In this document: positions 1,409-13,354 of the stretch, piece after piece
Numbering within the stretch: position 1 is the stretch's first letter
Layout: the number at the start of each line of letters is the position of its first letter
Origin: Arenicellales bacterium
GTDB lineage: Bacteria > Pseudomonadota > Gammaproteobacteria > Arenicellales > Poriferihabitantaceae
DNA length: 44,560 bases
Reading direction: 5' to 3'
Assembly: GCA_028285795.1 (NCBI GenBank)
Contig: JAPYNL010000053.1
Location: forward strand, 1-44,560
Program-made: the position numbers and the translations under genes
Notes under the pieces: model-generated
Seen by the model: only the letters and a program-made list of their open reading frames with translations
Told to the model about the DNA's origin: nothing
Databases searched by the model: none

Positions 1409-3343
1409 TTACGATTTTTGAAAATGTGGTGAAGGATATTGGTTTTCTGGTGTAAATTCAGTATCGTATTTTGGGTAATCGGAATCAGGATTGAAGCCAT
1501 TATTGAAAACACCGTTGGAATTCTTCAATATGTGAATTGTGGCATCAAGTGCCATCCTCAAGGCCGGTTCGGTCCACCCTCCCTCAACGCTATAATTCTC
1601 TCCTGCAAAATAAATGCGGGAATTCTTGCTATGCGTCTGGTTGTAGGCTAACAACGAATAATTCTGTGACCAATTTCTCTGACGATACAACTTGGCACAC
1701 CCGTGATAATAATGTTGAGTTGACCAGTGAATGATTGTTGGACCGCTGTCCAAGTCGACGTATTGACTGATTGACTCTCCAACAGTGGAATTGCAGACTT
1801 CATCTAGCTTCTCAATCATGAATGGGCCAAGAAAGTCCCCATCAAAAGGCAATAACTTGGTAGCGTCGTCTTCCCATGTGTAACTCACCAGCAATACGCC
1901 ATGTTCACCTGTTTCGTCTGACCACTTAACACCATATGCATCCTGTACATACTCGTCGGTGATGATGATCTGCGGAATTTTTGATACACCGTTTTCCCAG
2001 TAAGTCTCTTTCAACTTATAGAACACTTTGCAACTTGTAATAATGTGCTGGGAGTTGCGGGCAGATAATACCGACGAAGGCATTTGGGATTGATCAAATC
2101 CAGTCAGCTTGACATTCAACTCCGAAGCCCAAAGCGTTGGTGTAATCACTACATAATCAACTTCGTATGATTTATCGACTCCAACTTCGTTAACTTTCAT
2201 CTGGATCTTTCCGGTTGAAGAATTTTTCTGCAATTCTTCAACCAGTGTTTCAACCAGTATTCTTACTTTTGGATTGGATTGTTTGGATTTATCATAGAGA
2301 GATAAATCAGATGCGGGTGGGGGCGCATAGAACAACCACTCATCCAGAGACTGAATACCTTTGTAAAGTGGGGGCTCAAGCTTATTCCCATTGCTATCCG
2401 TAACATCAGCATTGTAATATGGCAAGCCAGATTTGTCGGTAATGCCAACTACCGTCTGCAGATTACTGTTGAAGCCAAACATTACGCACCTGATGAACCA
2501 CATCGAACTCGCCTCATAAAACGCTCCCCAACTTCCATCTCCAGACCCAATTAGCGCAAAGATTTCCGCTTGGTCATCATCCATTCCAAATCCGCCAAAC
2601 CAACCATCATTTTGATAATCGGTAATGGCAGGGGTATAAACCAGATCATTTACATTCATCTGTTCATAGTTATTCGACACATCTCTCCAGAAGTCCTGCC
2701 ATCCAGTCCCATCATATAATTCACCAGCTGCCTTGGTGAAGATGGTGATAAAAGCAGATACCTTTTCATAAACCTCTTTGAGTTTTTCATTATCTGGAGG
2801 AGATGGATTCGATGGGTCATAAGGCCAATCAATTAATGTCGGTTTCGAGTATTCGTTATCGGGTCCGTAACCTTTGTTGATGTAGATTCCAGTATTGCCC
2901 GGTGCCGCACCAGGATTGGGAAAATTCTTCAGGGTACAGCCGCTTTCGACCTTGATGTAATACTCGGATATGCAGTTTTGATCACCGGGTTTGGAGAAAA
3001 ATGGAAACCGCATTGCCCCCATTTCCATGTCGGTTACACCATCGGTGTGCACGGTGTAATGTCTGCCACAAATTCGGCCGCTAGCTTCACATAGTATGAT
3101 TTTGTATCCGCAGCGAGAGAGTTCTCTTGCCGCCGCAATCCCCGCAACACCGGCACCCACTATACCGATAGTTGGTGGATTGGTCGGATTGGGTGCGCTC
3201 CCGATGGCGTTCTTGTTTTCTCTTGCAAGGGATAATAGCTGGAAGTAATTGAAACGAAAATCAGGTGGGCTGGGGTATGCAGGAAGCCATTCATTAGCAG
3301 GCTTTCTTCCGCATTGTATTGGTATATTGAATAAAGCTCTCAT
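1409..3343 (-). CDS. Flavin monoamine-oxidase-family protein, similar to amino-acid (Trp/Lys/Phe) 2-monooxygenases
   Basis: FAD-binding IGIVGAGVAG...EASGRICGR, EMGAMRFP, LLVSYTWEDDA, and C-terminal IYFAGENYSVEGGWTEPAL; 644 aa; visibly AT-richer than its flanks. Confidence 0.85.
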   Translation of the reverse strand: MRALFNIPIQCGRKPANEWLPAYPSPPDFRFNYFQLLSLARENKNAIGSAPNPTNPPTIGIVGAGVAGIAAARELSRCGYKIILCEASGRICGRHYTVHTDGVTDMEMGAMRFPFFSKPGDQNCISEYYIKVESGCTLKNFPNPGAAPGNTGIYINKGYGPDNEYSKPTLIDWPYDPSNPSPPDNEKLKEVYEKVSAFITIFTKAAGELYDGTGWQDFWRDVSNNYEQMNVNDLVYTPAITDYQNDGWFGGFGMDDDQAEIFALIGSGDGSWGAFYEASSMWFIRCVMFGFNSNLQTVVGITDKSGLPYYNADVTDSNGNKLEPPLYKGIQSLDEWLFYAPPPASDLSLYDKSKQSNPKVRILVETLVEELQKNSSTGKIQMKVNEVGVDKSYEVDYVVITPTLWASELNVKLTGFDQSQMPSSVLSARNSQHIITSCKVFYKLKETYWENGVSKIPQIIITDEYVQDAYGVKWSDETGEHGVLLVSYTWEDDATKLLPFDGDFLGPFMIEKLDEVCNSTVGESISQYVDLDSGPTIIHWSTQHYYHGCAKLYRQRNWSQNYSLLAYNQTHSKNSRIYFAGENYSVEGGWTEPALRMALDATIHILKNSNGVFNNGFNPDSDYPKYDTEFTPENQYPSPHFQKS

Positions 3344-3537: not shown

Positions 3538-5097
3538 ATGACTTGGTTTATTGTTTTTATCATTGCGATCGTAGTAACGATTATTGTTATTACTGTTTTC
3601 GGGCGCTTTTACCACAAGGGATCACGTGAAAAAGCATTGATAAGAACCGGAGCCGGTGGACAGAAAATCGTCATGGATGGCGGTTGTCTCGTGTTGCCGT
3701 TCCTGCATCAGGTCGAACTGGTAGATATGAGAACAGCCTATATGGAATTGCTGCTGGAGAAAAATGATTCCATTCTCACAGAGGATCGAATGCGCGTTGA
3801 CCTCAACGTCGCGTTTCATGTACGCGTCATTCCCAGCATTGAAGGCATTGCCACTGCATCCCAGACTGTCGGCGTCAGATCCTTGAACCCCGAGCGACTG
3901 ACCGACTTTCTTAAAGGTAGGTTCATCGATGCCCTGCAAAGCGTTGTAGCTCAGCATACTATGGATAATCTGCATGAAAACCGTGCTCAGTTTGTAGCAA
4001 AAACCACCGCAATATTGAAGCCAAGTCTCGAAGAAAACGGACTCAAGCTTGAGTCCGTGTCCCTGATGAGGCTGGACCAAACAGAGTTTTCCACACTGAA
4101 TGAAAACAACGCATTCAATGCGGTTGGCATGAGGAAGCTGGCAGAAATCGTGACCGCAAACCGACGCAAACGCAAGGAAGTAGAGTCGAATGCCGATCTG
4201 GCCATACGAAGAACCGAGCTTGAAAATACAAAGAGTCGCATGCTGATTGATTTGGAAAAGGAAAAGGCCGAATCCGAAAAAACCATGGAAGTAGAACAGT
4301 TAAAGTCAGAAATGACCCGCCGCTCTTCCCACGAACGAGAGCAGGCAGAAATCGCATCAGGCCAGGCAAAACTGAATCGGGAGCTTGAACTCAGACGTTC
4401 CGAAATCGATCGAGACCAGCAAGTGAGAAAAGCCGAGGTTGTGGCACTTCAATCTGTCGAAGATGCCAGAATTCAAAGCCAGATCGAACTGTCCCAGCGC
4501 AGGGTCGAGGAATCCCAGGCCAAGGCCGATGCTGAATCAAGTCGCAAGGCAATCGTCGAAGCAGAAGAAGAGGTCAATCTTTTGCAGGACCGTCTGACAG
4601 CACAAAGAACCGGGGAAATCGCCCAAATAACAGCAGAGCTGGAATCCACAACCGCTCTTCACAAGGCACAAAGCGCAGCGGAAATCTCACATATCAATTC
4701 TGAAAGCGAAAAGGCTTCGGCCGACCTTGTCCAGGAACAAATCAAAAATGAAATGTCGATCAAAGCACTTGGTAAGCTTGAAATGATCAATGCCGAAAAC
4801 GCCATGAATCCCACATTGGTAGAGATGAAACTCGAAGAGAAGAGGCTAAGCGTACTTCCGGACATGGCAGACAGGATGTCACGGCCCCTGGAAAAAATCG
4901 GAAATATTAATATTAACCATGTCGCAGGACTGGGATCCGGATCGAACAACGGCAATCAGTCTGCAAAAACCGGATCAATTGTCGACGAGGTCCTTGACCT
5001 TGCTTTTCGAATGCCTGCCGTCAAGAAGCTTGGTGAAGCGGTTGGTTCCGAGATTACGGGACCAAGGAAAAAAGACGAGCCCGACAGAGGGAAATAA
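3538..5097 (+). CDS. Flotillin/SPFH (band 7) family membrane protein, YqiK-like
   Basis: N-terminal TM helix, ALIRTGAGGQKIVMDGG, SPFH core (TEDRMRVD, NGLKLESVSL, LDQT, NNAFNAVG), long E/A/R-rich coiled coil, PLEKIGNINI tail. Confidence 0.9.
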   Translation: MTWFIVFIIAIVVTIIVITVFGRFYHKGSREKALIRTGAGGQKIVMDGGCLVLPFLHQVELVDMRTAYMELLLEKNDSILTEDRMRVDLNVAFHVRVIPSIEGIATASQTVGVRSLNPERLTDFLKGRFIDALQSVVAQHTMDNLHENRAQFVAKTTAILKPSLEENGLKLESVSLMRLDQTEFSTLNENNAFNAVGMRKLAEIVTANRRKRKEVESNADLAIRRTELENTKSRMLIDLEKEKAESEKTMEVEQLKSEMTRRSSHEREQAEIASGQAKLNRELELRRSEIDRDQQVRKAEVVALQSVEDARIQSQIELSQRRVEESQAKADAESSRKAIVEAEEEVNLLQDRLTAQRTGEIAQITAELESTTALHKAQSAAEISHINSESEKASADLVQEQIKNEMSIKALGKLEMINAENAMNPTLVEMKLEEKRLSVLPDMADRMSRPLEKIGNININHVAGLGSGSNNGNQSAKTGSIVDEVLDLAFRMPAVKKLGEAVGSEITGPRKKDEPDRGK

Positions 5098-5168: not shown

Positions 5169-6404
5169 ATGAATATCAAAAGACGACAATTCATCAAGGG
5201 TGCAGGCGCAGCAAGTGCGGCAATATTTGCGCCACAACTTTCGTTCTCCATGAGCGAGCCGATCAAGATGGGAGTTCTGCTTGACACTTCAGGCCCGTTC
5301 AGTGCCTACGGAACACCCATGGAAATGGCGACCAGCCTGGCCGTCAAGCAAATCAATGATGGAGGGGGATTGCTAGGCCGTGAAGTCGAGGTTGTCTTCC
5401 GCGACACCCAGTCGGACATGAATAACTATTCGACTTTCGCAAATCAACTGGTACGCGAGGGACTTGACGTATTTCATGGCGGCATCCTATCTGCATCCAG
5501 AGAGGCAATTCGACAAATTCTGCGTCAACGAGGCGTACCCTATTTCTATAACGTTCTGTATGAAGGTGGGGTATGTGATCGAAACACCTTTATTACCGGA
5601 ACTACTCCTGCACAGCAGGTTAATGCACTGATTCCATATGCAATGAACAAGTATGGTACAGCGAAAGCATATGTTCTTGCCGCCAACTACAACTACGGAC
5701 AGATAACCGCTGCATGGGTAAACGAGTATGCAAGAGCGAACGGTGCCAGTGAAGTCGAGGTCGAGTTTTTTGACCTGGCAGATGGTGAGTTCGGTCCTTC
5801 CGCGATCGCAAAAATTCAGGAAGCCGGCAGCGATTTGGTTGTATCAGTGCTTGTTGGTGCCGCTCACTTGAGCTTCTATGGGCATTGGGCAGAAACCGGC
5901 ATGAACCAAAATCCTAATGTCCACCTGATTTCGACCACATTCGGAGTCGGCAATGAGCACAAGGTTCTACCGGCAAATCAGAGCGATGGCATGCTAATCG
6001 CCAACAACTGGGCTCCCGAAAATCCGTCCGTTCCTGAAAACAAGGCGTTTCTTGCTGATTGGACTCGGGAATATGGCGACACCGAAGCAATTCACGAAAT
6101 TGCTGTTTCACAATATCAGGGCATCCACCTCTGGGCTGAAGCTGTTCGACAGGCTGGAGCGGTTGATCGGGATTCCATTACCAAGACTCTTGAAAATGGT
6201 CTTGCAATCAATGGGCCCGCGGGCGTGGTGAAAATGGATCCCCTGACCCACCATTGCTCTCTTGATATCCACATTATGGAGCTAAACAATCAGAAACTGG
6301 ATGTTGTTCAGAAATTCGAACAGCGTGAACCTCTTGACACCCGGCGTTTCTGCAACCTGTCCGAAAATCCGGATTCCAATCTCCAGTACGAAATAACCCT
6401 GTAG
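5169..6404 (+). CDS. Amide/urea-type ABC transporter substrate-binding protein (UrtA/AmiC/FmdD family) with Tat signal
   Basis: KRRQFIK twin-arginine signal; PIKMGVL, GGLLGREVE, GGILSASREAIR, YFYNVLYEGG, ANYNYG motifs; GAGG RBS upstream. Confidence 0.9.
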   Translation: MNIKRRQFIKGAGAASAAIFAPQLSFSMSEPIKMGVLLDTSGPFSAYGTPMEMATSLAVKQINDGGGLLGREVEVVFRDTQSDMNNYSTFANQLVREGLDVFHGGILSASREAIRQILRQRGVPYFYNVLYEGGVCDRNTFITGTTPAQQVNALIPYAMNKYGTAKAYVLAANYNYGQITAAWVNEYARANGASEVEVEFFDLADGEFGPSAIAKIQEAGSDLVVSVLVGAAHLSFYGHWAETGMNQNPNVHLISTTFGVGNEHKVLPANQSDGMLIANNWAPENPSVPENKAFLADWTREYGDTEAIHEIAVSQYQGIHLWAEAVRQAGAVDRDSITKTLENGLAINGPAGVVKMDPLTHHCSLDIHIMELNNQKLDVVQKFEQREPLDTRRFCNLSENPDSNLQYEITL

Positions 6405-6560: not shown

Positions 6561-7436
6561 TTGCTTGAAGTGGATATCACAGTCATATTCATCCTGCAGA
6601 TACTGTATGCCACGACATTGCTGGCACTGATTTCTTTCGGACTCGCGTTGATATTCGGAATGATGCGTGTCATCAATCTGGCTCATGGAGAATTTCTGAC
6701 GCTAGGTGCCTACGCAACAATCCTTGCTACCAAAATGGGTGTCAACTTGTGGGTATCCATGCTTGTTGTTTCTCCGCTGGTGGTTGGCCTATGGAGCTTG
6801 ATTGTTGAACGTTTTCTCATTCGGTTTATGTATGGCAGACTGGTTTATACGATGCTCGCAACCTGGGGATTAAGCCTCGCCATGGCTGGAGCGATGACCA
6901 TGATTTTTGGGACCACAACCGAAGGTGTCTCGGCTCAGGCAGGATCTTTTTCGATCGGCACTTATCAGGCAAGTGTGTACAGTCTTTTTGTTATTGGAGT
7001 TACGATTGTTGTAGCGACCGGAATTGCCCTCGCCCTGTTTGGCTCAAATTACGGACGAGTCGCTCGTGCAGCAATGGAAAATCGAGAAATGGTCGAGGCT
7101 TTCGGATATCCAATTAACCAGGTGTACATGTGGACCTTTGTCGCCGGCGGCATGCTGGCCGGATTGGCCGGCGGTATCTTGGCGCCTACAACAGGAATCT
7201 CGCCCTACAGCGGAAGTACCTGGATAGCAGATGCCTTCATCACGGTTATTACCGGGGGAACCGGTTCGGTAATGGGCACACTGGCAAGTGCCGGCATTCT
7301 GGGCTCGGTATCTTCAATCACTTCATTCATTTTCAGTTCTGCATCCGGCGGTGTTGCCTTGCTGGTTGCCGCACTCGTGATTCTGCGTATTTTCCCAACT
7401 GGAATATCCAGCCTGTGGCAACAACGTAACCGATGA
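6561..7436 (+). CDS. ABC transporter permease (UrtB/LivH family)
   Basis: GLALIFGMMRVINLAHGEF motif; hydrophobic; TTG start is uncertain. Confidence 0.9.
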   Translation: MLEVDITVIFILQILYATTLLALISFGLALIFGMMRVINLAHGEFLTLGAYATILATKMGVNLWVSMLVVSPLVVGLWSLIVERFLIRFMYGRLVYTMLATWGLSLAMAGAMTMIFGTTTEGVSAQAGSFSIGTYQASVYSLFVIGVTIVVATGIALALFGSNYGRVARAAMENREMVEAFGYPINQVYMWTFVAGGMLAGLAGGILAPTTGISPYSGSTWIADAFITVITGGTGSVMGTLASAGILGSVSSITSFIFSSASGGVALLVAALVILRIFPTGISSLWQQRNR

Positions 7437-8470
7437 CTTTCGGTCAAAACAATTTCACCAGGAGCATGCTGGCCCCATTGCTGACGGCAATTCCCGTGAT
7501 TGTGATTGCACCGGCGATTCTGCAGCCATTTGCACTTGCACAGCTGTCGATTTTCGCTCTACTGGCTTTGAGTCTTGGCTTAATCTGGGGGTACGGTGGT
7601 ATTTTGTGTTTTGGGCAAGGCGCTTTTTTCGGCATCGGAGCCTATTCCTATGTGATTCTGGTAACTAATCTGTCACTGCCCTGGACTTCCCTGATACTGG
7701 CAATCTGCTGCACGATGATCGTTGCGGCATGTCTCGGCCTGGTCATGTTTTACGGAAGACTGGGGGATGTATATCTCGCAATTGTCACATTGGTCTTTAC
7801 CCTCATTCTGAATCGGTTCATGAATGCAACCGCCGGTCCTGAATATCAAATTGGATCTGCCAGACTTGGAGGATTCAATGGTATTCCAGGTTTCGAAGTG
7901 CTGAAACTGCCCTGGAGTGATTTACTGTTCATGCCTGATATACTGTTCTTCTACATTTGCTTTGGCATCCTCATCATGGCCTGGATTTTTTGCCGCTGGT
8001 TGTTGAGAACCCATTTCGGACGTGTGATGATCGCAATACGTGAAAATGAAAGAAAGGTCGAGTTTGCCGGTTATGACACTCGACTACACAAGACCATTTC
8101 CTTCGCTATTGGCGGCGGTCTCGCAGGAATGGCGGGCGTGTTGTATGCAAATTGGGCCGGTATTGTGACGCCAAATCTGTTCAGCCTGACCCAATCTGCA
8201 GAAATCATCATATGGACTATTGTGGGTGGGATCGGTACACTAATCGGCCCGATCATCGGTGCCATCTTGCTGGTATTTCTGAAACTGCTACTCGGATACC
8301 AGAGTGTTGTGGATAATTATTTCCTACTCGGCGTTCTCTTGATCCTTGTGGTAATTTGGTTTCCTAACGGCATTGCCGGTGCTGCCGCGCAATCAAGATT
8401 CATGAGTAGGACCGCGGTCAAAAAATGGAAGACCCATTCAAATCGAACCATGAACGCCAGGCGAAGTTGA
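7433..8470 (+). CDS. ABC transporter permease (UrtC/LivM family)
   Basis: LIWGYGGILCFGQGAFFG, GGFNGI, FGRVMIAIRENE, VGGIGTLIGPIIGA; ATGA overlap with the upstream gene. Confidence 0.9.
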   Translation: MTFGQNNFTRSMLAPLLTAIPVIVIAPAILQPFALAQLSIFALLALSLGLIWGYGGILCFGQGAFFGIGAYSYVILVTNLSLPWTSLILAICCTMIVAACLGLVMFYGRLGDVYLAIVTLVFTLILNRFMNATAGPEYQIGSARLGGFNGIPGFEVLKLPWSDLLFMPDILFFYICFGILIMAWIFCRWLLRTHFGRVMIAIRENERKVEFAGYDTRLHKTISFAIGGGLAGMAGVLYANWAGIVTPNLFSLTQSAEIIIWTIVGGIGTLIGPIIGAILLVFLKLLLGYQSVVDNYFLLGVLLILVVIWFPNGIAGAAAQSRFMSRTAVKKWKTHSNRTMNARRS

Positions 8471-8482
8471 CAGGTTATTCCA

Positions 8483-9208
8483 GTGTCAAATCTCGCCGTA
8501 CTTCAAGTTGAGGATCTGGTTGTCAAGTTTGGCGGCGTGGCTGCTGTTGACGGCGTCGACTTTATCCTCAACAGAAACGAGCTGCGCTGTTTGATTGGAC
8601 CCAACGGAGCTGGAAAAAGCACCTTGTTCAAGGCCATCGCCGGCCTGGTCCGTCCCATGTCCGGCAGAATCTGGGTCAAGGGTAATGAAATAACTCATTT
8701 GCCGCCGCATCTCGTATCACGACGGGGAATCAGCGTCAAAACGCAAGTACCAAGCCTGCTGGAAGGGCTGTCGGTTTATGAAAATCTCTGGATTGTTGCC
8801 AGACGAAAGTATCTCCGTCAAAGCTGCCGGAAAATTATCGAACCAATCATGGAAGATATCGGTATTGGAAAAGATTCTGAGACCATCGTTAACACCATGG
8901 CGCATGGCAGAAGACAGCTGGTTGAGTTTGCAACAGCCTTGATTGCAAAACCTTCCATCATGCTTCTTGATGAACCGGCAGCCGGTCTGTCGGAGGAAGA
9001 GGTTATAGATTTTGCAAAGCTATTGCGTACCCTACCCTCGCAGATGTCATTGCTGGTGGTTGAACACAACATGAAATTTGTACGCATGGTTGCCAAACAG
9101 GTCAGTGTCCTTCATAAAGGACGAATCCTGATCTCGGGAGATCCAGACTTTGTGTTCAATGATGCGAAAGTTCAGGAAGTGTATCTTGGCAAAGAGGCAA
9201 CCGCATGA
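8483..9208 (+). CDS. ABC transporter ATP-binding protein (UrtD/LivG family)
   Basis: Walker A GPNGAGKST, Walker B MLLDEPAAG, VVEHNM, VQEVYLG end. Confidence 0.92.
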   Translation: MSNLAVLQVEDLVVKFGGVAAVDGVDFILNRNELRCLIGPNGAGKSTLFKAIAGLVRPMSGRIWVKGNEITHLPPHLVSRRGISVKTQVPSLLEGLSVYENLWIVARRKYLRQSCRKIIEPIMEDIGIGKDSETIVNTMAHGRRQLVEFATALIAKPSIMLLDEPAAGLSEEEVIDFAKLLRTLPSQMSLLVVEHNMKFVRMVAKQVSVLHKGRILISGDPDFVFNDAKVQEVYLGKEATA

Positions 9209-11526
9209 AAGACGGTGCTCCACTCGACTTACTGAACGTTAGAAATCTGAGTGCGGGTTACTCTGGAATTTCAGTGCTCCGGGACGTCGACCTGCAGGTC
9301 AGTGAAGGTGAGTGTGTTGGCCTGTTCGGCCACAACGGCATGGGCAAGTCGACACTGCTCCGCACCCTGATTGGATTAATTCATCCACTCTCGGGGAGCA
9401 TCGAATTCGACGGTGAGGACATCACTCATCTGCCAACATGGAAACGTGCAAGGCTGGGAATCGGATATCTTCCTCAAGGACGGGGAATTTTTCCGAGTTT
9501 AAATGTCGCAGACAACGTTGGCATTGCATTTAACCCTGACACTCGGGACAAGGATGAATGGTCAGCCCTAGAAGGCGCAATTACGCGCTTTCCGATTCTG
9601 GAATCACTGATAAAGCAAGCAGGGGGTACCTTAAGCGGTGGAGAGCAACAAGTACTGGCGCTTGCTCGTGCTCTCACAGCAGATCCAGTCATGTTGCTGC
9701 TGGATGAGCCCACAGAAGGAATTCAACCTTCCATTGTCATGGAAATTGCCAGCGAGCTCTCCTCAATCGCAAGAAATTCCGGCTTAACCATCTTGATGGT
9801 AGAACAAAATATCGATTTCCTGAATGTGCTCGCGGACCGTGTCCTTCATATTGAAAACGGCCGGGTGACAGATCAGCAACGGTCCTCTTCGGGTATTGCC
9901 CAACCACCAAAACCGACTCCCCTGCAGTCCGATACTTCAATACCCACAACCAACCATGATCCCGATGTATCAATCGATGTCAAGGCCGCACCAATTCCAG
10001 AGAAACAAATGGCAGTAACAAGACCCACAATTGATCAAATGGAAAAGATTTCCTCGGACCTGCATTTTCATATCGACCGAAACGCCCTGTCTGAATATCT
10101 AGATCTGGCTCAATCCACGATTGACGCCTATGACGTTGTAAATGCGATGCCAGATGAATTACCCGTGGTGAAATACCCGAGAGCTGGTGGATATGTGCCA
10201 GCAGAATCCGAGAACCCGCTGAATGCCTGGTACGTGAAATGCGATATCCCAGGAGCCGCAGATGGGCCACTCAAAGGCAAGAATATTGTTTTGAAGGATA
10301 CGATATGTCTGTCCGGCGTTCGTATGATGAATGGTTCCTCAATTCTGGATGGATACGTACCAGATGTTGATGCATCAATTGTTACGCGCACTCTGGATGC
10401 TGGAGCAAGAATAATCGGAAAAGCGCATTGCGAGTATCTCTGTCTGTCCGGAGGTAGTCATACCAGTGCCGGTGGTCCAGTGAAGAACCCTTGGCGTACC
10501 ACTCATTCTTCTGGTGGTTCTTCATCAGGTTGTGGCGCTCTGGTCGGTTCAGGAGAGGTGTCCATGGCAATCGGCGGGGATCAGGGAGGCTCAATCAGGA
10601 TCCCATCTTCATGGTCGGGCTGCTATGGAATGAAACCGACCCATGGTCTGGTGCCATACACCGGTGTTATGGCGATTGAGACCACCATCGATCATGTCGG
10701 ACCCATGACCCGAACCGTATGTGACAACGCATTGTTACTCGAAGCTATCGCAGGTTATGATGACGGTCTCGACCCCCGTCAGTACAATACGAAAACCCAT
10801 GTCTACAGCAAGGAATTGCTACAGGGCATTGCTGGATTGAGGATTGGCGTAGTCGCTGAAGGATTTGGGTGGCCAAACAGTGAATCGGACGTTGACGAGG
10901 CTGTACGCTCAGCGATAAATTTACTGTGCTCAATGGGTGCAGCAATTGATGAAGTGTCGATTCCCATGCATCGACAAGGTGCCGCAATATGGACACCTAT
11001 CGCACTTGAGGGACTCACCGATTTAATGATGCATGGCAATGCCTTCGGAACGAATTACCGCGGATTGTATCTAACTGGCTTGATTGACCACTATGCCAAC
11101 TGGCGGAACCGGGCTGATGAATTGTCTGCGAGCCTCAAGATTTGCATGATGATTGGCGAGTATTTTATCAAGCATCATAGGGGCCGGTACTATGGGAAAT
11201 CACAAAATCTCTCGCGTCGACTGCGCCATGCCTATGACGATGCTTTTCAGCAATTTGATCTTTTGGTCATGCCAACGATCCAAATGAAGGCTACCCCCCT
11301 GCCGCCGCCCGATGCACCGCTATCGCTGTATATTCAGAGAGCATTTGAAATGATTGTCAATACCGCGCCGTTTAATTGCACAGGGCATCCTGCGATGAGT
11401 ATTCCATGTGCACTCCGGGACGGACTACCGGTCGGCATGATGCTGGTCGGCAAACATCTGGATGAGTCGACAATTTACCGGGCCGCATACGAATTCGAAC
11501 AGTCATCCAACTGGCAGGATCTTTGA
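9205..11526 (+). CDS. Fusion of ABC ATP-binding domain (UrtE/LivF) and amidase-signature amidase
   Basis: About aa 1-220: [33 protein letters not shown]-rich linker follows. The amidase starts at MAVTRP (ATG 10009) with [47 protein letters not shown]. There is no stop codon between the domains. Confidence 0.9.
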
Positions 11527-11533
11527 TTGCCCA

Positions 11534-13354
11534 ATGACCAAGCTCAGCGAACCAATTACTGATCTTTCCAAACCGCTGATTGACCATCTAGCCATTCCCG
11601 TAGGTTCGTCTTCTTCGTCGATGACCCATAGCCAAAAATCTATTCGCAAATTCGTGCAGGCCGGTATGTCCCATGTCAGTGGGGATACAACAACTCCCCT
11701 GCTCGAATTATCCATCCCGGAATTGGTCAACGAGACTGTTCGCAACCACTCCAAGCGAACGGCCGTGGTGTTTTGCGATCAGGACATCCGGAAAACCTGG
11801 CAGGAGTTTGCGACAGATATTGATCGACTTGCGGCAGGATTTCTGGCTCTGGGACTGAAGAAAGGTGATCGTCTGGGCATCTGGTCACCGAATCGCTATG
11901 AGTGGCTGCTAACTCAATTTGCCACTGCCCGTACAGGGGTGATTCTGGTCACCATCAACCCTGCCTACAGGATATCTGAACTAAAGCATGTACTGGAAAC
12001 CTCGGGATGCAAGGCCCTTGTGATGGCCCAGAAATTCAAGTCCAGTAATTATGTTGAAATGCTCCTGCAACTAAAAGTGAATGCATTCACATCCGGATCT
12101 TCCAAATCGAGTTTGTCGAATCTGGAACATGCGATCATCATCCAAAATCAGGATCAGAGTGAAAGACCGGTTGGAATGCATGCATTTTCCGAAATCATGG
12201 ATTTGTCCGGCCCCGCACATATTTTGCGTCTCGAAGAAATTAGTGCCCATCTCAACCCGGATGATGCAATCAATATCCAGTTTACCAGTGGGACAACCGG
12301 TTTGCCGAAAGGTGCCACTCTTTCCCATCGGAATATTCTTAACAACGGAAAGTTTGTCACGGATGCCCAAGGATTTATGGAAAATGACACGTTATGCATA
12401 CCTGTTCCCCTGTATCACTGTTTTGGAATGGTTATGGGAGCCCTTGGCTGTGCGACCAAAGGTGCGGCCATGGTATTTCCTTCGGAAAGCTTCGTAGCAA
12501 AAGATACTGTCCGTGCGATAGCTAGAGAGGGTTGCACGGCATTGTATGGTGTACCCACCATGTTCAATGCAATACTGAATCTGGAAGACTTTGATTCGTA
12601 TGACTTGACCTCTCTGAGAACCGGGGTTATGGCAGGTGCACCCTGTCCGATTGAAACCATGAAACGGGTTGTCGATGATATGCACATGACAGAGGTTACA
12701 ATTGCCTATGGCATGACTGAAACAAGCCCGGTTTCTTTTCAAAGCAATCTGGATGACCCTATTGAAATGCGGGTATCGAAAGTCGGCCGGGTCCATCCGC
12801 ATGTGGAATGTCGCGTTATTGATGGCGAGGGCAATACGGTACCAGTGGGGCAACAGGGTGAGTTATGCACTCGCGGCTATTCGGTCATGAAGGGATACTG
12901 GAACGATCCCACACAAACCAGGGCTTCAATCGACACTGATGGCTGGATGCATTCGGGTGATTTGGCCATTATTGATAATATGGGGTATTGCAACATTGTT
13001 GGTCGCGTCAAGGATATGATTATTCGTGGTGGAGAAAATATCTATCCAAAGGAAATCGAGGAATATCTCCACCAGCATCCGGGAATTCAGGATGTCCAGG
13101 TGTTCGGTGTCCCGGACCACCATCTGGGTGAAGAAGTATGTGCGTGGGTAGTTCCGGTAGATTCTCAAGGCTTGAGCGAACAGGATATCATTGCTTTCTG
13201 CAAGGGGCAAATTGCCCATTACAAGGTACCTCGTTATGTACGAATTCGCAATGACTTGCCAATGACGGTTACCGGAAAGGCACAAAAGTACAAAATGAGG
13301 GAGGCTATGCTCAAGGAATTGAAATTGGAAAACCATATTGGGCCCGAGGCATAA
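11534..13354 (+). CDS. AMP-binding acyl-CoA synthetase (ACSF2/FadD-like)
   Basis: [57 protein letters not shown]. Start placed at the ATG just after the amidase stop; the ORF track starts at 11462. Confidence 0.92.

Follow-up and report, generated by a model that had tools for sequence, protein, structure and literature searches.

A conserved gene fusion joins a Urt-type importer ATPase to a complete amidase in Alpha-, Beta- and Gammaproteobacteria and probably also yields a free amidase

Import by ATP-binding cassette (ABC) transporters and consumption of the imported substrate are as a rule the work of separate proteins. What, then, is to be made of a gene that reads straight through from the ATPase of such an importer into a complete amidase, and what would its product do? 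The question is raised by a 44,560-nucleotide stretch of DNA from an Arenicellales bacterium of the Poriferihabitantaceae (assembly GCA_028285795.1, contig JAPYNL010000053.1, positions 1 to 44,560 of the forward strand), referred to below as the window. Positions 9205..11526 (+) of the window hold a single open reading frame (ORF) of 773 amino acids without internal stop, composed of an ABC nucleotide-binding domain matching the UrtE model TIGR03410 (residues 1-224, 9205..9876 (+); predicted local distance difference test score, pLDDT, ~70-90), a disordered linker rich in Pro, Ser and Thr (residues 225-268, 44 amino acids, 9877..10008 (+); pLDDT <50, unalignable between clades) and a complete amidase-signature enzyme with an N-terminal helical domain (residues 269-773, 10009..11526 (+); matched by NF005565 and 3A1K). 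A single gene joins an importer ATPase to a complete amidase with intact catalytic residues; the fusion is real and uncharacterised, and it is built from known kinds of parts, a Urt-type importer and an enzyme of the type of the Rhodococcus amidase RhAmidase.

Both halves of the protein were readily recognized. Pfam placed ABC_tran (PF00005) at residues 25-170 (E = 3.5e-34, 118.8 bits against a cut-off of 25) and Amidase (PF01425) at residues 350-757 (E = 2e-90, 304.4 bits against a cut-off of 27). Among the NCBIfam models, that of the amidase subfamily NF005565/PRK07235 matched residues 269-771 over model positions 1-504 of 506 (772.8 bits, cut-off 545), and the best model for the ATPase was TIGR03410 (UrtE) over residues 10-227, with 240.9 bits, under the equivalog cut-off of 285.8. 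The solved structure closest to the amidase was that of Rhodococcus sp. N-771 (RhAmidase, 3A1K), with residues 270-766 of the query aligning to residues 2-499 of the chain (E = 1.6e-137). Because the alignments with NF005565 and 3A1K both begin there, Met269 (nucleotide 10009) marks the site at which free amidases start, as a first, sequence-only reading of this DNA had proposed. ABC ATPases are defined by the Walker A, Q-loop, LSGGQ-type signature and Walker B motifs, which are found here as GHNGMGKST (residues 42-50), Q91, LSGGE (143-147) and LLLDE (164-168), respectively. The amidase triad, placed by hand from the 3A1K alignment against the Lys96/Ser171/Ser195 named in a review, falls on K364/S439/S463, and the GGSS motif corresponds to G437, G438, S439 and S440. 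In an alignment of 35 fused homologues, the core motif residues of the ATPase, the amidase triad, GGSS and Met269 are all invariant. The linker (225-268) contains 8 Pro, 6 Ser and 4 Thr in ~45 residues; in the full-length AlphaFold2 model, pLDDT drops below 50 at about residues 225-271, and the helices 276-285 and 292-309 are present. The description given by the sequence-only reading, namely an intact LivF/UrtE-type ATPase with Walker A, LSGGE and Walker B, a ~45-residue linker rich in Pro, Thr and Ser, and a full amidase with a Lys/Ser/Ser triad, was thus borne out in each of its parts.

As judged from comparison of sequences, the gene fusion is genuine and under selection. Positions 9000-11600 are spanned by four contigs, one from each of four sequencing runs, with 6-9 substitutions and 0 gaps, the sole change in the linker being 9907 C>T, which converts Pro235 into Ser and introduces no stop. 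All four contigs belong to a single study labelled as sponge metagenome and do not amount to independent support, because the source sample may be among those of that study. When 5.8 billion proteins were searched, PF00005 and PF01425 were both present in every one of the 120 top-scoring clusters, with lengths of 755-866 amino acids and identities down to about 53%; where named, these proteins are called just 'amidase'. Fused hits came from cultured bacteria too, namely Mesorhizobium sp. CGMCC 1.15528, Pacificispira spongiicola and Denitrobaculum tricleocarpae. When one genome per species was scanned, 71 loci were recovered, 64 of them with both domains, and in 62 of these 64 the two domains lie in a single uninterrupted frame that runs open through the linker. 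The linkers span 37-158 amino acids across the loci and cannot be aligned between clades, with the frame preserved at every change of length; that a linker hypervariable in length and sequence nonetheless keeps the frame argues for selection on the fused product. The two remaining loci, L072 and L080, were considered as natural unfused forms and dismissed: their frame breaks also affect UrtD, the amidase and the ligase, and the respective contigs are either error-rich or decaying throughout.

The fusion is rare per genome yet widespread, occurring in Alpha-, Beta- and Gammaproteobacteria. The nearest relatives, 81-83% identical, come from metagenome-assembled genomes labelled Candidatus Poriferihabitans, Arenicellales or Gammaproteobacteria. 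Five of 41 related genomes carry the fusion, namely three of the eight from the same genus (G000, G002 and G003), one from the same family (G023) and one from another family of the same order (G035). In an even sample of the phylum comprising 401 genomes, only two (G000 and G396) gave a match to both domains without interruption, and a search of the literature outside subscription-only journals found no account of the fusion, so that the fusion had fairly been called unusual. The taxa in which it occurs include Arenicellales, Burkholderiales, Rhodospirillaceae, Bradyrhizobium, Rhodobacterales and others. A small contig of 3,076 nucleotides labelled Chloroflexi bacterium (L013) bears a fusion 82% identical to that of the window and groups with Arenicellales in the amidase tree; the Chloroflexi label probably results from misbinning.

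Free-standing amidases of the same subfamily, 49-62% identical, are commoner than the fusion: at E <= 1e-150, 14 of 17 genomes in the phylum sample had matches in the amidase region only, and a fifteenth (G264) proved to hold an unfused pair. In the unfused relatives L093, L095, L084 and L086, urtE is followed by the amidase as a separate gene within a similar transporter cluster. The unfused UrtE ends in a short tail (for instance ...EFVGMSS or ...ERLVGFH, followed by the stop codon), and the amidase next to it has a GGAG-type site and ATG of its own. These comparisons indicate that the urtE-amidase gene order is older than the fusion, and in the simplest history urtE would have lost its stop codon, after which the linker grew. 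A quick tree built from 81 rows of amidase sequence (83 minus 2 identical ones) recovered one fused group of 31 rows, a second of 29 fused rows plus 2 cut by contig ends, and an unfused group of 13 rows. It left the branching order of these three groups unsettled and is therefore compatible with a single origin of the fusion without demonstrating one.

Several loci bear on this history in their own right. In L084 (G264:C1, minus strand, ~5642-5724 in locus coordinates) urtE and the amidase share a frame, with one TGA and six codons between them (..HLAP, stop, QEKEEAM..), which leaves the pair one substitution short of fusion. In L031-L076, the alpha and beta clade, the first ~20 residues of the long linkers contain a conserved motif approximating G-x-x-[IL]-x-x-L-[LV]-G-[LM]-G (..LLGLG..) that resembles the C-terminal tail of unfused UrtE and is absent from the Arenicellales clade, including the window. 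Two candidate long-linker fusions were discarded: the ORF listing of L086 (G064) shows a stop after UrtE, and the long frame of L085, the second locus of G264, is a spurious extension in GC-rich sequence. Next to transporter genes, both of these loci also hold another amidase of the subfamily, a more distant one (46-48% identity; L086, 1150-2667; L085, 5931-7436).

The amidase half begins at a methionine, and the fused gene probably also yields a free amidase, from what appears to be a conserved internal ribosome-binding site and ATG. In the window, the candidate internal start (9999..10011 (+)) consists of a weak purine tract, agagaaacaa, and the ATG at 10009-10011 (Met269). An ATG at the start of the amidase is kept in all 63 fused genes (the window and 62 loci). 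Pairing of positions -20 to -3 with the anti-Shine-Dalgarno string averaged -6.63 kcal/mol at the junction ATG of these 63 genes, compared with -2.80 at 46,420 in-frame positions, -2.92 at 1,734 other in-frame ATGs and -6.85 at 55 aligned starts of neighbouring genes. A Shine-Dalgarno (SD) energy of -4 or lower was reached in 28 of 31 representatives sharing <90% identity, 10 of 10 sharing <80% and 6 of 6 sharing <70%. The residues that precede the methionine are clade-specific (..E-K-x and ..E-N-x versus ..G-x-x), and both versions encode GGAG-like strings; the same strings behind different residues indicate constraint at the nucleotide level. In all 63 loci, the messenger RNA (mRNA) from -20 to +20 around the ATG is more open than the body of the gene (mean z 1.14); in the window it folds at -1.2 kcal/mol, against a gene-body mean of -6.9 (z 1.92). 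For the family as a whole we lean towards actual use of the start at Met269, with lower confidence for the window itself. Precedent comes from phage endolysins, in which one gene gives a full-length chain and an in-frame C-terminal chain that multimerise, as set out in PMC9430671. Those genes resemble the present case in the in-frame internal start, the shared stop codon and the multimerisation of the short product with the long one; they differ in that the endolysins are lysis enzymes with experimental proof, whereas the case for the fused gene is comparative only.

What would a free amidase chain be for? A Urt-type transporter contains one UrtD and one UrtE, so that each transporter would carry a single amidase chain. 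RhAmidase, according to the same review, forms a dimer of about 107 kDa and has a unique N-terminal helical domain that contributes to the substrate tunnel. A two-copy model of residues 270-769 scored 0.93, with the best of 3 controls at 0.00, on a scale for which calibration had 20 of 30 proteins with structures solved as pairs, and 1 of 23 with structures solved as single chains, reaching the mark. Three runs of the dimer model shared at least 97% of contacts, with partner pLDDT of at least 95, and the modelled interface includes residues 271-319, immediately past the junction. Given one UrtE per transporter and a homodimeric type of amidase, a free chain would complete the tethered one, and the modelling is consistent with a free amidase copy that may pair with the tethered copy. 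Alternatively, two tethered chains could bridge two transporters.

The fusion is the sixth gene of a seven-gene cassette encoded on the same strand (+ throughout). The cassette opens with a FloT/YqiK-like flotillin (3538..5097; SPFH/Band_7 plus Flot domains, Flot 4.5e-18, Band_7 8.3e-14), followed by a periplasmic binding protein with a twin-arginine translocation (Tat) signal (5169..6404; Peripla_BP_6 1.4e-73, TAT_signal), a UrtB-like permease (6561..7436; BPD_transp_2 2.3e-33; TIGR03622 212.6 bits against a cut-off of 374.25), a UrtC-like permease (7433..8470; BPD_transp_2 4.1e-42; TIGR03727 240.9 bits against 575.55) and a UrtD/LivG-like ATPase (8483..9208; ABC_tran 1.5e-29 and BCA_ABC_TP_C; TIGR03411 221.6 bits against 304.1), the stop of which overlaps the start of the fusion in the ATGA at 9205-9208. 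Downstream of the fusion lies an acyl-CoA ligase (11534..13354; AMP-binding 7.2e-97), on which NF009233/PRK12583 scored 791.1 bits, just below its cut-off of 832. The longest ligase ORF begins at 11462 and overlaps the amidase gene by 65 nucleotides, the match starting at residue 69 of this long ORF, and an in-frame ATG at 11534 lies 8 nucleotides past the amidase stop. Since the ligase match in other loci begins after the end of the amidase, the start at 11534 fits better, and we consider it likelier than 11462. This arrangement is conserved: among fused loci with at least 5.6 kb of upstream sequence, 48 of 49 have a flotillin homologue upstream on the same strand, the binding protein precedes the fusion in 48 of 49 loci whose upstream sequence is long enough, and the acyl-CoA ligase lies downstream in 52 of 54 loci with at least 2 kb of downstream sequence. 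Flotillin is thus a fixed member of the fused cassette, which gives it a candidate client complex. No flotillin or ligase match was found in the flanks retrieved for the unfused loci examined. An internal promoter ahead of 10009 and a terminator within the cassette were considered and rejected, since consensus scans detected such sites at no more than chance level (14 promoter-like sites versus 12.4 expected; 11 terminator-like sites versus 10.4 expected). On the other side of the flotillin gene and divergent from the cassette is a flavin amine oxidase of 644 amino acids (1409-3343 (-)), which is kept in L011 (80% identity) and L015 (41% identity) and lies outside the conserved cassette elsewhere.

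Which substrate might this system take up? The binding protein scored 301.5 bits with TIGR03669 (cut-off 494.8) and 186.1 bits with the UrtA model TIGR03407 (cut-off 492.75); its nearest solved structures are 8TG1 and the urea binders 7S6E and 8HIC, the latter being nearest among those with a named ligand. By these matches, it belongs to the urea/amide-binding branch and is not a UrtA equivalog. In Prochlorococcus UrtA, PMC10392092 describes nine residues around the urea, with contact residues including Trp120, Ser122, Tyr141, Gln144, Glu146, Tyr190, Asn246 and Ser274, and reports that mutation of Trp120, Ser122, Gln144, Tyr190 or Asn246 abolished or greatly reduced urea binding. The corresponding pocket of the window protein reads I106, S108, Y127, L130, E132, Y174, Y176, V229 and T257 against W, S, Y, Q, E, Y, F, N and S in UrtA: Ser108, Tyr127, Glu132 and Tyr174 are kept, and the changes are Trp120 to Ile106, Gln144 to Leu130, Asn246 to Val229, Phe to Tyr176 and Ser274 to Thr257. 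The signature I-S-Y-L-E-Y-Y-V-T is nearly invariant among 57 cassette binding proteins of at least 40% identity, each position being conserved in 49-54 of them and the Ile, Leu and Val that replace Trp120, Gln144 and Asn246 in 53-54; most of the remaining exceptions are positions outside the alignment coverage. Because three key urea-binding residues are absent, the substrate is probably a small amide other than urea, and because two side chains that bind the urea nitrogens are replaced by apolar ones, it is probably a mono-amide with an apolar side. The acyl-CoA ligase was also considered as a guide to the acid substrate, which was dropped, its nearest solved chains being too mixed (feruloyl-, fatty-acyl-, malonyl- and oxalyl-CoA ligases, E from 1e-73 to 1e-58).

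Several known systems share parts of this design. The urea transporter UrtABCDE (TIGR03407-03411; UrtA structures 8HIC and 7S6E) has the same five-component layout and provides the best models for all five parts; in the window, however, these parts score below the cut-offs, three urea residues are replaced, UrtE bears an amidase, and a flotillin and a ligase are added. RhAmidase (3A1K/3A1I) aligns with the amidase half from end to end and shares its N-terminal helical domain and Lys/cis-Ser/Ser triad, and is described as a homodimer, but it is a free-standing cytoplasmic enzyme, its gene presumably lying in a nitrile hydratase cluster, whereas the enzyme of the window is joined to an ABC ATPase within an importer operon. 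In the nitrile pathway that Hashimoto and colleagues reportedly described in 2005, an amidase is followed by an acyl-CoA synthetase (amide to acid to acyl-CoA). The cassette would share the succession of amidase and acyl-CoA synthetase steps with that pathway, except that there the amide is made in the cell from a nitrile, whereas here it would be imported; Pfam and NCBIfam scans of the window proteins found no nitrile hydratase in the cassette. The Mesorhizobium MeAmi_SBP operons combine an ABC importer with an amidase for L-amino acid amides (bioRxiv 10.1101/2024.02.22.581678). As far as the abstract of that work tells, they are similar in encoding importer and amidase together for the uptake and hydrolysis of amides and different in their families, the binding protein being SBP_bac_5 and the amidase FmdA_AmdA, and the abstract makes no mention of a fusion. 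The literature search, covering journals other than subscription-only ones, found no paper on the fusion or the cassette.

Taken jointly, we hold it fairly likely that the locus encodes a selected fusion of the UrtE-like ATPase of a Urt/Fmd-type importer with an amidase, serving uptake, hydrolysis and activation of an amide, and that it supplies a free amidase in addition. In this scheme, a five-component ABC importer of the Urt/Fmd type would take up a small non-urea mono-amide, the tethered amidase would split it at the cytoplasmic face of the transporter into a carboxylate and ammonia, and the downstream acyl-CoA ligase would activate the resulting acid; the whole may be scaffolded by the flotillin, and a free amidase chain from the internal start would be the partner of the tethered chain. 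Since small neutral amides pass through membranes with ease, their prompt conversion to charged products would keep the solute in the cell. An importer of the amide type with a tethered amide hydrolase is in keeping with the conserved cassette and with the gene order of unfused urtE and amidase. The coupling of uptake to hydrolysis, which the sequence-only reading had also proposed, and the formation of a tethered-plus-free dimer are both inferred. A bolder version, in which a flotillin-organised importer with both a tethered and an internally initiated free amidase chain at its exit would render uptake effectively irreversible and group-translocation-like through hydrolysis and CoA activation, we regard as doubtful.

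A number of points weigh against the scheme as proposed. All five transporter parts have Urt models as their best NCBIfam matches, each below its equivalog cut-off, and the pocket comparison is a hand reading of a pairwise phmmer alignment to 8HIC at low overall identity. The full-length AlphaFold2 model is mediocre (mean pLDDT 66.3, predicted template modelling score 0.51) and uninformative on how the two domains dock, and the high score of the amidase dimer may reflect likeness to the solved RhAmidase. The remaining points concern the internal start. The anti-SD string is the generic bacterial one and may differ from those of these genomes, the mRNA-structure test carries no correction for local composition, and the counts overstate independence because the loci are related. 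The best SD position falls within 3 nucleotides of the junction ATG in just 23 of 63 loci, and GC-rich loci have stronger SD-like strings elsewhere in the linker. In the window itself, the SD, ccagagaaacaaATG, stands at -2.9 kcal/mol, the background level, where its nearest relatives carry ttggagaaacaaATG at -6.4 kcal/mol; internal initiation may for this reason be weak or lost in the window. The second start at 10009 suggested by the sequence-only reading accordingly finds backing at the level of the family, with the ATG kept in 63 of 63 genes, SD pairing like that of real starts and open mRNA, and falters in the window, where the SD is degraded.

The conserved SD and ATG could also be a relic of a once-separate amidase gene, with a functional fusion made as the 85-kDa chain alone and tethered dimers bridging two transporters, perhaps in flotillin-organised clusters. 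In its favour, an SD and ATG occupy the equivalent position in the unfused relatives and would thus be inherited; the SD of the window has decayed to -2.9 kcal/mol; a flotillin gene goes with the fused cassette in 48 of 49 loci, none being seen beside the unfused relatives examined; and linkers of 37-158 amino acids are long enough for bridging. A neutral remnant, however, would be expected to decay together with the linker, which has diverged past alignment and changed in length while the ATG was kept in all 63 fused genes, the SD remained as strong as that of real starts in representatives below 70% identity, and the mRNA stayed locally open in every one of the 63 loci. We therefore consider the relic improbable, though a serious contender, and prefer an internal start that is in use.

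The two other explanations concern the amidase domain and the junction. MalK and MetN have C-terminal regulatory domains, extensions of this kind on importer ATPases are commonly regulatory, and the amidase domain likewise lies C-terminal to the nucleotide-binding domain; it could then act mainly as a cytoplasmic sensor that gates the ATPase rather than as the main catabolic enzyme. This is very unlikely in our view, given that the Lys/cis-Ser/Ser triad and GGSS are invariant in 35 of 35 aligned fused proteins, that the domain matches an enzyme subfamily model end to end and above its cut-off, that a long disordered linker is an improbable allosteric route and that the downstream acyl-CoA ligase implies an acid product. 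Almost no weight attaches to the idea that an error of assembly or sequencing within the linker made one gene out of adjacent urtE and amidase genes. Unfused neighbouring pairs do exist in other genomes, and the related loci L072 and L080 are out of frame, but the frame breaks in these two hit several cassette genes and not the linker alone, the four contigs, each from a run of its own, cover the gene with 0 gaps, and 62 of 64 loci, drawn from many assemblies, keep the frame, with all 120 of the best clusters fused; contigs and relatives alike contradict an artefact. A genuine fusion with a catalytic amidase remains the preferred reading.

Coupling of transport to the first step of metabolism in a 'transport metabolon' is often proposed and hard to prove. 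A covalent link between importer and enzyme that is kept across Alpha-, Beta- and Gammaproteobacteria offers a natural system for testing channelling, and the fused gene is a candidate bacterial case of one gene supplying both the tethered and the free subunits of a dimeric enzyme. The database name 'amidase' hides the transporter half of the fused proteins. In apparently sponge-associated bacteria as well as in others from freshwater and soil, the cassette points to an uncharacterised route for amide nutrients and, if the proposed scheme is true, to a capture machine in which one gene encodes both halves of an asymmetric, tethered-plus-free enzyme.

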